The notes beneath the pieces were generated by a model. That model searched no databases. It was not told the DNA's origin and worked only from the letters and a program-made list of their open reading frames with translations. A program made the translations under genes and the position numbers. DNA of 64,000 nucleotides. It comes from Acidimicrobiia bacterium UBA4744. Its GTDB lineage: Bacteria > Actinomycetota > Acidimicrobiia > Spongiisociales > UBA4744. This document shows, piece by piece, positions 20,032 to 27,550 of the stretch (positions are counted from its first letter, which is position 1; every line of letters starts with the position of its first letter). The DNA lies in assembly GCA_002403855.1 (NCBI GenBank), contig DHIO01000050.1:16598-80597 (forward strand), in the 5' to 3' direction.

Positions 20032-20194
20032 TCGGCCGGTCCTAGCGCCGCCCTTGCCATGTCCGGGGCTCTCAATCCATCATCGACCGCGTTCCGTAGC
20101 TCCCCAAGGTCCGTCGATGCCGCAGTGGTTCTGAGCAAAACGTGTTTTAAGATAGGAAAAGTTAGGCTAGAGTGCCTAAAGGGAATGGGGGGCG

Positions 20195-20959
20195 ATGGCT
20201 GGGACCGTCCAATCGACTACACAACGTGGTCAACACTCGGTCGACGGGCCGCCGACACCGAGACGGAGCTTCATGAGCAGGCTCAGTTTCGGCCACGCGG
20301 TCATGATCGTGGCCGGGCTTGCGGCATTCTTGCTCGTTTTCTCCCTTCTGAGGAATAGGGAGGAGACCTTTCAGATCGCAACTGCCGCAGGTGACCTCCG
20401 AGCGGGAACCACGGTCACCGCTGCCTCGTTCGCCTACGCCGAGTTGGGCGTGGCGGATCGCAACCTCCTCGAAGCTTTACTCGATCCGGAGCAGGTTGCG
20501 CGCGCAATCGAGGAAGGATGGGTCGTGACACGGAGAGTGCAGGAGGGCGATCCCGTCAGGATGAGCGACTTCCGCACGCAGGCCGACACCTCCGAGGTGA
20601 GGGCGATGAGTATCCCGATCGAGCGCGGACACGCAGTCGCCGGGGCGCTGCAGGCAGGCGACCTGATCGACGTCATCGTCGTACGCAAAGGCGTGGCCGA
20701 ATATGTCGTAACTGGGGCCGAGGTCCTCGATGTGGATGAAGGCGAAAGCCAGTTCGGCGGCGGTTTCAGCGTGACGCTTGCGGTCGATGGGCCCGCCAGT
20801 CTTCGCGTGGCATCCGCCTTGCGGGATGGCGGCATCGAGCTGGTGCGCGCAACAGGTGCGACCGGCGCAGATCCTTTGGACTTCTTCGATCCCCTTCAGG
20901 GCTCGTCCCCGGAGTCACCCCGTGGGGAACCGCCAACACTCGAGTCGAGGCCGGGCTGA
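20195..20959 (+). CDS. cpaB: Flp pilus assembly protein CpaB/RcpC-like (SAF domain)
   Basis: Single N-terminal TM (MSRLSFGHAVMIVAGLAAFLLVF) then SAF/CpaB-type domain. Alternative start ATG 20273 gives the canonical short cytoplasmic N-terminus. AT-rich promoter-like region 20130-20190. Confidence 0.7.
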   Translation: MAGTVQSTTQRGQHSVDGPPTPRRSFMSRLSFGHAVMIVAGLAAFLLVFSLLRNREETFQIATAAGDLRAGTTVTAASFAYAELGVADRNLLEALLDPEQVARAIEEGWVVTRRVQEGDPVRMSDFRTQADTSEVRAMSIPIERGHAVAGALQAGDLIDVIVVRKGVAEYVVTGAEVLDVDEGESQFGGGFSVTLAVDGPASLRVASALRDGGIELVRATGATGADPLDFFDPLQGSSPESPRGEPPTLESRPG

Positions 20960-20961
20960 CC

Positions 20962-22209
20962 ATGCCAGAACGGGAGCCGGTGATCGTGATGGCGCATTCG
21001 CCCCGGTCGTGGGCTCGGACGCTCAAGCAACATGTCATCGATCACGGTGGGGGCCGGATCATGGCATCGATCATGGCCGCCGAGGACGCCTCGCTCGACG
21101 GCTACGACGTCTTCGTTGCCGACGACACGACCTCATTCCTTACCCCGGGTTTCGTGGCAGATTTGCAGCGACGCGGGATCTCAGTGGTCGGCGTCTACAA
21201 CCCGGCCGAAGCGGAGGCGAGCGGCAAGCAAAGACTGCTGGCTCTCCAAGTCGATGATGTCATTGAGGCCGATGCTTCTCCCAACGAGTTCTTGCGTGTG
21301 CTGGCCCGCGCTTCAGTTGGATCACTCACCTATGACGATCCCGGGTTTTCCGCCCTGATGGCGGATCTGGCACGTCCAGCGCTCGAGTACGAGGACCCGT
21401 TCGACGGGTCTCCTCTCGGATCAGAGCGTGGTCGGTTGGTTGTGGTTGCCGGCGCATCTGGCGGGGTAGGAACGACCGAAGTCGCCATTGGGCTCGCCAC
21501 GCTACTGGCGAGAAGTGGCAACGGTCCCGTTCTGGTCGACGCCGACGACGTAGGCCCCTCGGTCGTCCAGCGGCTGGGCTTGCCCGTGCATCCGAACCTC
21601 CGCTCAGCCATCGATGTGGTACACAACCGCAACGGAGATCTCCGAGACTCTCTGATTCCGGTCACCGTCGGAGGTTTTGAAGTTTTGGGTGGGCTGGCGA
21701 ATCGGAGAGATTGGTATGAGCTGCGGCCGGCAGACGTCGCCGAGGCCGTTCTCGAGTTGGCCCGCATACGGGACCATATCGTCGTCAACGTCTCATCCCG
21801 TTTGGAGGATCTGCCGGCTATCGGCGGTCCGGCTCGGTACGGCGTGACCCGCTCCGTGTTGGCACTCGCGGATGTGGTCCTCCTGGTCGCGCGCCCAACC
21901 CCCGTCGGCGTCGCTCGGGTGCTCGACTGGATTGCCGAGGCAACCCCGTTGATTGAGGCCACCCCTCTCATCGTTGCGTTCAATGGCTTCGAAGGTGGCG
22001 CCTTCAAAGCAGCCGAAATCGAGGCAGAGCTTTGCCACGTCTACCAGCCTCGTGCAATTCGTTTCATTTCCCGCGACAAGAGCCTGGCCCACGCCACATG
22101 GCAAGGGATGCTGCCCAATCGTGGTCCGTTCTTGAAGTCGCTGGCAGATTTGTCGGCTGCTGTAGTTCCGTCGACCCGAGCACGCCGCAGGATCCGGAGA
22201 ACGCAGTGA
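20962..22209 (+). CDS. tadZ: TadZ/CpaE-like ParA/MinD-family ATPase with N-terminal pseudo-receiver domain
   Basis: Deviant Walker A VVVAGASGGVGTTEVAIGLA; N-terminal receiver-like domain. Confidence 0.8.
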   Translation: MPEREPVIVMAHSPRSWARTLKQHVIDHGGGRIMASIMAAEDASLDGYDVFVADDTTSFLTPGFVADLQRRGISVVGVYNPAEAEASGKQRLLALQVDDVIEADASPNEFLRVLARASVGSLTYDDPGFSALMADLARPALEYEDPFDGSPLGSERGRLVVVAGASGGVGTTEVAIGLATLLARSGNGPVLVDADDVGPSVVQRLGLPVHPNLRSAIDVVHNRNGDLRDSLIPVTVGGFEVLGGLANRRDWYELRPADVAEAVLELARIRDHIVVNVSSRLEDLPAIGGPARYGVTRSVLALADVVLLVARPTPVGVARVLDWIAEATPLIEATPLIVAFNGFEGGAFKAAEIEAELCHVYQPRAIRFISRDKSLAHATWQGMLPNRGPFLKSLADLSAAVVPSTRARRRIRRTQ

Positions 22210-26049: not shown

Positions 26050-26486
26050 GCGCGAAGGAACGAACCCCTCAAGCGGGCTTTGCGGCAGCTGAATGGGCTG
26101 TGGGACTTGCCCTGATCGTGCTGCCATTGGTGATGATCGTCGGTTCGGTAGCGCCATGGCATGCCCGGCAGACAATGGCACGGGAAATCAGCCAGGAAGC
26201 GGCTCGTAGCCTCGCACTGGCCGCCGATTGGGAGGCGGGTTTGGCCTCCTCGAATCGTTTGGCAGCAACGATTGCAGCGAACTACGGGCTCGACGAAGGC
26301 GATTGGGGTTTTGTGATCATCGGAACCGACCCCGCCGGAATGGGCCTGGTCCGGGGCGTCGATGTGGTGGTCGAAGTGCGAGTGCGTATCCCGGCCCTGA
26401 CCATTCCCGGCATCGGATCCCTGGCGGAGGTCTGGTGGCATACCCGGCACGTCGAGCACGTAGATGACTTCCGGAGCTTCCCATGA
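26046..26486 (+). CDS. TadE/TadF-like pseudopilin
   Basis: N-terminal QAGFAAAEWAVGLALIVLPLVMIVG; ATGA overlap with the upstream gene. Confidence 0.65.
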   Translation: MSAKERTPQAGFAAAEWAVGLALIVLPLVMIVGSVAPWHARQTMAREISQEAARSLALAADWEAGLASSNRLAATIAANYGLDEGDWGFVIIGTDPAGMGLVRGVDVVVEVRVRIPALTIPGIGSLAEVWWHTRHVEHVDDFRSFP

Positions 26487-26932
26487 GAATCCTCCAGGGA
26501 GAAGACGGCTTCACCAGTGTCAACTTCATGTTGATGATGCTGGTGTTGATCATTGCCGTGGGGGCGATCTCTGTCGACCTCTGGAATCTGGTAGCCGAGC
26601 ACCGCGAGGTTGCCGGAGTAGTAGATGGAGCAGCAATCTCAGCCGCAAACGCGGTCGATAGGGAAGCGTTGCGACAGAATCCACCGCAGGTGCGGCTTCG
26701 ACCCGATCTTGCGATAGCCCGTGCCTGCAGCTACTTACAGACGCATGTTGGTGTCGGTGCTTGCCCGGGTCCCGACGTCCGGGTCCTGGTTGAAGGCGAC
26801 ATGGTGTCGGTCACGATGCGGCGTGACGTAGGACTGACGCTGCTGCGGGTCTTCTCTGGATTGAACGCGGCCTTGGACACATCACCGATTGGGGTGATGG
26901 CGACATCAACCGCCGGAGCCACGAGAAGGTGA
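26483..26932 (+). CDS. TadG-like pseudopilin / pilus assembly protein
   Basis: N-terminal GEDGFTSVNFMLMMLVLIIAVGAISV; ATGA overlap with the upstream gene. Confidence 0.65.
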   Translation: MRILQGEDGFTSVNFMLMMLVLIIAVGAISVDLWNLVAEHREVAGVVDGAAISAANAVDREALRQNPPQVRLRPDLAIARACSYLQTHVGVGACPGPDVRVLVEGDMVSVTMRRDVGLTLLRVFSGLNAALDTSPIGVMATSTAGATRR

Positions 26933-26941
26933 AGGCACGCC

Positions 26942-27550
26942 ATGCTTGATGGTCGACCCGGATCAACGGGGCGCCTGGTTGCCGGGGCCGGCGTGGCAGC
27001 CGTGCTCGTAGGAGCACTCGTCGTTTCGTTGTTCGAAGGCGGTGGAGATGTTTCGACTGCTCTGCGCACAACAACAACAACAACAACAACAACAACAACA
27101 ACAACAACAACGGGACCAGCGCCGGCTGACATCTCAACCGCGTTCAAGGATGACGACACGTCGTACTTGAGCCGGACCTCGCGGCCGGTGCGGTCGGTTG
27201 GTGATATCAGGGTCGCCGGAGATGCTGTACTTGCCGCATGGGGGCGCTTCGCAGTGTCAGGGGATCTGTCTGAAGTAGATGCCTACTTTCACGGGAATAG
27301 TCCTCAACTGCCGCTTCTTGCGGCGAAGGCCACCCGACTTGGCGCTGACCCATTGGGCGAGCCAGCCTATGCCTTTGAAATGGCGAGCCCCCGCATCGAG
27401 GAGGATTCGCCGGGAATGGCGACCATGCAGGGTTTGGTCACCGCCTTTCGCGGCCATGCCCCGCCCTTGCAGTTCGAGTGGAGGTTGGTCCTCGCCAGGT
27501 CTGATGACCCTCCCGGCTGGCTCCTATGGACCCTGGAAGAGTTGGACTGA
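26942..27550 (+). CDS. membrane-anchored hypothetical protein with poly-Thr(15) linker, last gene of the Tad locus
   Basis: N-terminal TM (LVAGAGVAAVLVGALVVSLF), then T15 encoded by the (ACA)14+ACG repeat, then a ~140-aa globular domain of unknown family. Confidence 0.55.
   Translation: MLDGRPGSTGRLVAGAGVAAVLVGALVVSLFEGGGDVSTALRTTTTTTTTTTTTTTTGPAPADISTAFKDDDTSYLSRTSRPVRSVGDIRVAGDAVLAAWGRFAVSGDLSEVDAYFHGNSPQLPLLAAKATRLGADPLGEPAYAFEMASPRIEEDSPGMATMQGLVTAFRGHAPPLQFEWRLVLARSDDPPGWLLWTLEELD
27067..27111 (+). repeat. (ACA)14-15 trinucleotide microsatellite inside the 26942-27550 CDS
   Basis: Counted directly: 44 nt of uninterrupted ACA repeat plus G = 15 Thr codons. Confidence 0.9.

Follow-up and report, generated by a model that had tools for sequence, protein, structure and literature searches.

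A probable monoderm-type Tad/Flp pilus operon with a linked membrane protein of predicted NTF2-like fold in an uncultured Acidimicrobiia bacterium

Tight-adherence (Tad) pili serve in adhesion, biofilm formation and surface sensing, and in DNA uptake in some actinobacteria. Among the described machines are the Cpa system of Caulobacter crescentus and the Tad system of Aggregatibacter actinomycetemcomitans, both from diderm bacteria, and the loci of monoderm actinobacteria such as Bifidobacterium breve (tad2003), Mycobacterium tuberculosis (Rv3654c-Rv3660c) and Micrococcus luteus, which are secretin-less, follow the pattern tadZ-tadA-tadB-tadC-flp-tadE-like and have their prepilin peptidase encoded elsewhere. 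Here we describe positions 20195-27550 of a 64,000-nucleotide stretch of contig DHIO01000050.1 (the window), from the uncultured Acidimicrobiia bacterium UBA4744. We consider it highly likely that the ten genes found there are an ordinary, intact Tad/Flp (type IVc) pilus operon, chromosomal and of the monoderm type. The last of the ten, which we call gene 10, encodes a membrane-anchored protein with a predicted NTF2-like domain.

The locus has in common with the Caulobacter and Aggregatibacter systems CpaB/RcpC, CpaE/TadZ, CpaF/TadA, two platform proteins, a short Flp pilin with a G↓xxxxE motif (the arrow marks the cleavage site) and, probably, minor pilins of the TadE/F/G type. In contrast to those systems, a secretin, a pilotin, CpaD/CpaI/TadD and a linked peptidase are all absent from the ten genes, neither Walker-A lysine is present in TadZ, the pilin is not matched by Flp_Fap, and the series ends in an extra NTF2-like gene. 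The host is presumably a monoderm actinobacterium. The locus is secretin-less, and in gene content it resembles the monoderm actinobacterial loci named above. The best NCBIfam matches of its proteins are actinobacterial families, yet all actinobacterial equivalog cut-offs are missed. It departs from those loci in having cpaB inside the operon, together with gene 10 and a conserved gene upstream, which we call up190. M. luteus carries cpaB-cpaE at a separate locus beside an HTH_17 regulator (PMC8467076), and the same paper, in the statement for which it cites Tomich et al., has rcpC/cpaB absent from Gram-positive tad loci (PMC8467076). Gene content, domain identities, folds, motifs, conservation and the linkage of gene 10 to the Tad genes were all observed at this locus and its relatives. 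The features are as follows.

19498-20031, plus strand: up190, the upstream gene, ~177 aa, GTG start
20126-20190, plus strand: AT-rich leader, lowest G+C in the 64 kb window
20195-20959, plus strand: cpaB, matched by RcpC and SAF hidden Markov models (HMMs)
20962-22209, plus strand: tadZ, assigned by structure and profile matches
22206-23504, plus strand: tadA, GTG start, 432 aa, T2SSE domain
23501-24409, plus strand: tadB, 302 aa, T2SSF domain
24406-25374, plus strand: tadC, GTG start, 322 aa, T2SSF domain
25423-25635, plus strand: flp, 70 aa, conserved prepilin motif
25642-26049, plus strand: minor pilin 1 (TadE-like), N-terminus ESG↓FTSLQF
26046-26486, plus strand: minor pilin 2 (TadE/TadF-like), N-terminus QAG↓FAAAEW, conserved Glu at +5
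26483-26932, plus strand: minor pilin 3 (short TadG-like N-terminal domain), N-terminus EDG↓FTSVNF
26942-27550, plus strand: gene 10 (bitopic, predicted NTF2-like), transmembrane (TM) helix, Ser/Thr/Pro-rich linker, C-terminal domain
27068-27111, plus strand: (ACA)14.7 perfect trinucleotide repeat, encoding Thr15 in the gene 10 linker, detected with Tandem Repeats Finder (TRF)

An original prediction, made from the letters alone, had described ten co-directional genes, joined mostly by 1-4-nt overlaps, as a complete Tad locus encoding every core part. The ten genes do all lie on the plus strand and the component genes are present; "complete" was an overstatement, since the processing peptidase is missing, as the prediction itself had said. 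The statement about overlaps is roughly right, in that five of the nine junctions are 4-nt overlaps (GTGA or ATGA), but at the other four the genes are separated by 2, 48, 6 and 9 nt. The five overlaps point to tight coupling of the Tad genes. A mechanical list of open reading frames (ORFs) places the starts of tadA at 22032 and of tadB at 23393, too far upstream; we preferred the overlapping starts because they have better ribosome-binding sites and because the same lengths are called in relatives, where independent gene calls gave 432 aa for TadA and 299-302 aa for TadB. Two minus-strand ORFs antisense to the pilin genes (25860-26510 and 26282-26638) passed a crude filter on third-position G+C and were rejected because the plus-strand genes have orthologs and HMM support. 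The G+C content of the locus (61.6%) is near that of the window (63%), and thus gives no sign of recent transfer. An Rfam scan of 19000-28000 found no riboswitch and no known RNA (a CrcZ match on the ACA repeat had E 0.62), and terminator predictions were at chance level.

The same arrangement is widespread among uncultured relatives. TadA has 196 relatives in species-representative genomes, of which the best 80 (55-87% identity) are nearly all from metagenome-assembled genomes (MAGs) labelled Acidimicrobiia, Actinomycetota or Actinomycetes. The order cpaB-tadZ-tadA-tadB-tadC-flp, followed by the three minor pilin genes, is common to 80 species-level MAG loci (the best 80 of the 196), and we therefore regard this as a normal, vertically inherited Tad locus of the monoderm type. 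The conserved neighbourhood begins one gene upstream of the originally predicted locus, at up190. Many related loci carry a homolog of it 5′ of cpaB and in the same orientation; the homolog in locus L089, where TadA is 54% identical, was aligned by hhalign with a probability of 99.5% and E 6e-23. up190 has no TM segment and no Pfam or NCBIfam family at threshold, and gives weak Sm-like/DUF2642 and Hfq-like (3HFO) signals. The protein is cytoplasmic and probably linked to the Tad locus, and could serve the pilus as a partner or as a regulator.

HMM scoring of each translation, proposed with the original prediction as a check, left its assignments standing, some only by way of orthologs or structure. 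The clearest cases are the SAF-domain CpaB, the CpaF-type ATPase and the two GspF platform proteins. CpaB consists of an N-terminal TM helix, a SAF domain and an RcpC beta-clip domain, and passes the Pfam gathering scores for both RcpC (PF16976, 31.3 bits, cut-off 28.8) and SAF (PF08666, 22.7 bits, cut-off 21); it missed TIGR03177 (50 bits, cut-off 71) and had no match in a search against PDB sequences. TadA scores 80 bits against T2SSE (cut-off 24.9), and its best solved relative is Caulobacter CpaF (8rkd, E 6.4e-52). Its translation contains a Walker A motif (GQPGAGKTS), a Walker B-type motif (ADRIVVGEVRGAEA) and a His-box (CTVHANSA). TadB and TadC, encoded by adjacent genes, hold one T2SSF domain each (PF00482, 36.0 and 55.2 bits, cut-off 25.2).

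The ParA-like TadZ with a pseudo-receiver was supported by structure and not by sequence models. The protein has a receiver-like N-terminal domain (residues 1-125), a disordered linker and a domain of the MinD/FleN fold. Its AlphaFold (AF2) model has a mean predicted local distance difference test score (pLDDT) of 84, with an N-terminal (beta-alpha)5 domain at ~90 in addition to the MinD fold. Foldseek aligned the model with Eubacterium rectale TadZ (3FKQ) over 420 columns, covering both domains (E 1.4e-9, 11% identity), and this was the only one among the matches listed whose alignment spans both TadZ domains. A profile of 20 orthologs matched PDB entries of MinD (1hyq, E 1.7e-9) and FleN across the whole C-terminal domain. 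In the sequence HMMs, by contrast, ParA was just missed (26.7, cut-off 27.1), TIGR03815 was missed and ParA/CbiA only grazed, TadZ_N matched neither the window protein nor the 20 orthologs scanned, and hhalign placed the N-terminal domain in register with CheY-type receivers at a non-significant P of 0.03. The protein thus has the two-domain build of E. rectale TadZ, an atypical receiver joined to a MinD-like domain, and differs from it in its low identity, in the lack of a TadZ_N match and in having neither Walker-A lysine. Walker A reads GASGGVGTT, and both lysines of the deviant motif are replaced in every ortholog examined. Because the MinD fold is kept without the catalytic Walker-A lysines, the most likely function of TadZ is that of a scaffold and not of an ATPase, and the loss of the lysines throughout the clade argues for a purely structural role. 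Whether a lysine-less Walker A is uncommon among TadZ proteins is judged here from secondary descriptions.

The Flp prepilin, for which the original prediction had relied on a processable G/xxxxE motif, does carry that motif. Its 70 residues divide into a 25-aa leader ending in DDDRG and a 45-aa mature pilin beginning FQTAEAIAI (site RG↓FQTAE), and the pattern (D/E)xG↓xxTAE is kept in ~70 Flp orthologs as an acidic patch, a Gly, a hydrophobic residue and (T/S)A(E/Q). In close relatives the mature pilin is 93-100% identical and the leader 16-44% identical. The mature pilin is under strong purifying selection while its leader runs free, as expected of a working pilin whose class III signal peptide is cleaved off. 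We found no match to Flp_Fap (PF04964) or DUF4244 for the window Flp and 14 orthologs scanned at E<=0.01, and an Flp alignment profile matched no pilin among PDB sequences; hhalign gave a weak alignment with a sequence taken as Caulobacter PilA that was in register, with P 0.005.

The three pseudopilins named in the original prediction, our minor pilins, are probable on the strength of their orthologs, as the window proteins are at or below threshold. Minor pilin 1 scores 15.3 bits against PF13400 and 15.2 bits against TIGR03816, both under the cut-off, and minor pilin 3 scores 22.2 bits against PF13400 (cut-off 22.3), a family with which its L089 ortholog is annotated. The window's minor pilin 2 matched no HMM; its motif and position are kept in orthologs. 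Within the minor-pilin ortholog set, 14 members match PF13400 (best 1.5e-8) and 4 match TadE (PF07811, 8.8e-9), and all three minor pilins have a conserved N-terminus with a G↓hydrophobic site.

A prepilin peptidase of the A24 family (TadV/CpaA) was found neither in the locus, as the original prediction had also noted, nor in the 64 kb window. The window has 11 polytopic membrane ORFs, and each of them falls into another family: a TrkA-type channel, DUF3159, TadB, TadC, MMPL, three ABC permeases, ABC-2, a ceramidase-like protein and a major facilitator superfamily (MFS) protein. A search for hydrophobic ORFs with the motif GxGD[VAILFMT][KR] found none in the window and none up to ~10 kb from the locus in 87 related loci. 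Prepilin peptidases are often unlinked or shared (PMC6668835), and because this is well documented the absence near the locus is expected rather than alarming. By analogy with such systems, we infer that an A24 peptidase would be encoded elsewhere in the genome.

The AT-rich, promoter-like stretch at 20130-20190 that had been pointed out before the operon is real and not a matter of chance. Its G+C content is 42.6%, against the 63% of the window, and only 0.02% of 61-nt windows are as low; the minimum, the lowest 61-nt G+C in the whole window, starts at 20126. The leader holds a -10-like TAAGAT (20148-20153), an inverted repeat TTAGGC-N6-GCCTAA (20162-20179) and a ribosome-binding site AAGGGAA, and a block of the form TTTA[AG]GAT AGG ... 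AAGGGGATGGG..ATGGCT is kept 5′ of cpaB in close relatives. A consensus promoter scan did not call the AT-rich leader. We considered the inverted repeat as an operator and do not propose it, because the exact palindrome is not conserved in relatives. A further region, 25393-25453, comprising the 48-nt gap between tadC and flp and the start of flp, is among the six most AT-rich 61-nt regions of the window. Here the pilin may have an internal promoter or a strong site of translation initiation, and the gap is compatible with separate or boosted pilin expression.

Gene 10 has a TM helix at about residues 12-30, a Ser/Thr/Pro-rich linker and, at residues 83-202, an extracytoplasmic C-terminal domain. 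This domain of ~120 residues, modelled with pLDDT >95, is predicted to have an NTF2-like fold (an alpha+beta cone), so that the protein as modelled shows the N-terminal TM helix and extracytoplasmic NTF2-like domain that mark bitopic assembly factors of the VirB8-like kind. Family members have Arg residues (positive charges) before the TM helix and a linker with a median of 42 residues, ~51% of them Ser, Thr or Pro. An exact-sequence look-up of gene 10 in public assemblies gave no match. Searched with the single sequence, 5.8 billion proteins yielded only five homologs; with a C-terminal domain profile the number was 235, all "hypothetical", and none of the homologs listed from either search carries a precomputed Pfam domain. 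An exhaustive profile search of 1.84 billion cluster representatives returned 329 family matches. Pfam and NCBIfam gave nothing real for gene 10, including among VirB8/TcpC-related families; matches to the "Amastin", "Mucin" and "TMEM51" HMMs in these scans were dismissed as composition artefacts.

The original prediction held that the last gene is not a canonical Tad component. This was correct as far as it went, but the linkage of the gene to the 3′ end of the operon makes it a conserved accessory of these loci and not a stray. An HMM of its C-terminal domain matched 22 of the 87 related loci as well as the window, always on the operon strand, and the homologs lie nearly always directly 3′ of the last minor pilin gene; the exceptions are L014, with a second copy ~4 kb downstream, and L018, where gene 10 lies ~2 kb downstream. 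Long forms (310-360 aa) carry an acidic, disordered cytoplasmic N-terminal extension, which rules out our earlier candidate reading of them as fusions of a minor pilin with gene 10. In the long-form loci (L089 and ERZ1305449) gene 10 is again the last gene of the Tad operon, with TadA 54% and the NTF2 domain 30% identical to those of the window. Two co-directional genes stand between the TadG-like pilin and the NTF2 gene there (L089 8621-10008; ERZ1305449 contig 4772-6126); one encodes an unknown protein (183-190 aa), the other a protein with PKD domains (261-279 aa), and these may be further pilus-associated or adhesin components.

Conservation of gene 10 is uneven. In close relatives in which TadA is 86-88% identical, gene 10 is 40-50% identical; L008 (TadA 87%) retains an internally deleted remnant (8972-9430), and L011-L013 lack the gene. 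In L012 (14697-17600) and L013 (14724-17624) a gene for ~966 aa occupies its place after the last minor pilin, and its product has at its start FTDVEGST, a motif resembling that of adenylate/guanylate cyclases, with an NTPase region after it. The Thr15 run that had been noted in gene 10 is real and encoded by a perfect (ACA)14.7 repeat of a rare Thr codon (TRF 100% matches, score 88). No other tandem repeat of the window is as strong. Elsewhere in the set of 83 family members that we analysed, Thr runs reach 6 residues at most, so poly-Thr was discarded as a family feature in favour of a window-specific microsatellite. As the repeat is trinucleotide, slippage would alter the length of the linker and keep the frame.

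The best interpretation of gene 10 is a fast-evolving, dispensable, surface-exposed accessory of the Tad machine, restricted to certain lineages. Its nearest counterparts in known systems are bitopic NTF2-like proteins of the VirB8 type, which belong to type IV secretion and to Gram-positive conjugation (TcpC 3UB1, TraM 4EC6, TraE, CagV, DotI, IcmL-like). By analogy with these it could plausibly help to assemble or stabilise the machine in the manner of VirB8, or serve as a spacer at the level of the wall like the Caulobacter CpaI bridge. We found no report in the searchable literature of an NTF2-fold component in any type IV filament system. A more specific proposal, which we put forward only tentatively, is that gene 10, perhaps with up190, is an undescribed accessory module of monoderm Tad systems, in which an NTF2-like protein on a probably O-glycosylated Ser/Thr/Pro stalk, similar to VirB8/TcpC or CpaI, would work at cell-wall level, either nucleating the extracytoplasmic pilus machine or stabilising it.

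The genes around the operon vary in their conservation. Upstream, the window encodes an OmpA-C-like peptidoglycan-binding/BON protein and a pyridoxal phosphate (PLP)-dependent, cysteine-synthase-like enzyme (16984-18417 and 18552-19418, minus strand), both conserved in L001-L005, and this neighbourhood may be plain synteny. A small divergent HTH_17 gene lies 5′ of cpaB in L004 (2770-2967), L005 (1698-1937) and L089 (1149-1400), each on the minus strand, and is not present in the window. Downstream, a DUF222/HNH endonuclease gene stands on the opposite strand 3′ of the Tad locus in the window (27554-29083), L004 (10594-11775) and L008 (10793-12058), all minus; in other relatives this place is taken by unrelated genes, and the locus therefore has no fixed downstream boundary. 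Elsewhere in the window, 12714-13913 (minus strand) encodes a protein with a DUF4388 domain (63.6 bits), a domain tied to motility or pilus regulation in other bacteria. A tandem repeat of the heptamer GGTTTCA, with about nine copies at 42532-42595, sits where an ABC permease gene (41503-42525, plus strand) and a GH97 glycosidase gene (42577-44700, minus strand) converge, between their 3′ ends.

How such a machine would work can be outlined by extrapolation from other systems, with the roles of the components following the in situ architecture described for Caulobacter (PMC13170226). The 70-aa prepilin and the three minor pilins would insert into the membrane, and the A24 peptidase from elsewhere in the genome would cut after the conserved Gly to leave the 45-aa pilin starting FQTAE. 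A TadA hexamer on the TadB/TadC platform would power polymerisation and probably retraction, with TadZ encircling or positioning the motor as a scaffold. Membrane-anchored CpaB could form an extracytoplasmic alignment cage, and the three minor pilins might prime or cap the fibre. Gene 10 would be an optional accessory, holding its NTF2-like domain ~40-50 linker residues outside the membrane.

Several observations weigh against an intact, conventional pilus operon. The Flp candidate and two of the three minor pilins are themselves under every curated HMM threshold, and the locus proteins miss all NCBIfam equivalog cut-offs. With no peptidase in the window or in ~10 kb around the 87 loci, processing of the pilins is a prediction. 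The absence of the Walker-A lysines makes even ATP-dependent dimerisation like that of E. rectale TadZ uncertain. The machine does not need gene 10, since close relatives lack it or keep it in decayed form, and the NTF2 fold, being functionally promiscuous, is a poor guide to activity. The lack of a peptidase in 64 kb, or beside any of the related loci, would also suit a relic that makes no pili; we find this very improbable, as all ten ORFs are intact with their overlaps kept, the mature pilin is nearly invariant across species whose TadA is 82-88% identical to that of the window, and unlinked or shared peptidases are common (PMC6668835). A further reading of the same HMM results is that the locus is not a classical Tad pilus but the mycobacterial-type "helicase/secretion neighbourhood" system (TIGR03815/03816/03819; Rv3654c-Rv3660c), families annotated as associated with conjugal transfer. 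These three families are indeed the best NCBIfam matches of TadZ, TadA and two pilin-like proteins, but their cut-offs are missed by far (36.1 against 154.45 for TadZ, 205.4 against 373.15 for TadA, 15.2 and 16.8 against 50.95 for the pilin-like proteins). The presence of CpaB and two T2SSF proteins, and CpaF as the closest solved ATPase, leave that reading with very little probability.

What the pilus is for, and whether gene 10 belongs to it, are separate matters. In M. luteus, Tad pili and a module of HTH_17, CpaB and CpaE (TadZ) affect competence (PMC8467076), and the pilus described here might likewise serve mainly in DNA uptake (natural transformation) rather than in adhesion. L004, L005 and L089 share a divergent HTH_17-cpaB-tadZ arrangement that matches Mlut_14660/14650/14640, in which mutations change competence gene expression (PMC8467076). 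However, the window has no HTH_17 gene, no comEA or comEC was seen among the genes scanned, with no search aimed at them, and function is not readable from gene content; we regard uptake as the main role as unlikely. It is doubtful, though somewhat less so, that gene 10 encodes a neighbouring envelope protein that merely shares the transcript and has no role in the pilus. Such a bystander would explain why close relatives can lack the gene or hold it in decayed form although the rest of their locus is intact, and why it evolves so fast beside TadA (40-50% against 86-88% identity), and NTF2 folds do occur in many unrelated functions. Yet gene 10 is co-directional and at the 3′ end of the Tad operon in every context found (23 loci plus L089 and ERZ1305449; L088 and L090 are too short to show the genes upstream of gene 10 and so fall outside this count), the linkage persists down to 54% TadA identity, and in L005 the gene overlaps the upstream pilin gene by 4 nt. 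We therefore keep to a Tad pilus operon of the monoderm type with gene 10 as its accessory.

The general picture of Tad systems is unchanged by this locus. Its novelty is modest and lies in the Tad-linked NTF2-like family, the lysine-less TadZ, the cpaB gene within a monoderm locus and the conserved up190. A conserved Tad operon across abundant uncultured Actinomycetota (Acidimicrobiia) of soil and sediment is useful for ecology and for annotation, where these proteins are at present labelled "MinD-like ATPase" or "hypothetical". The NTF2-like family tied to these operons is a candidate for a part in how secretin-less Tad machines are organised outside the membrane.

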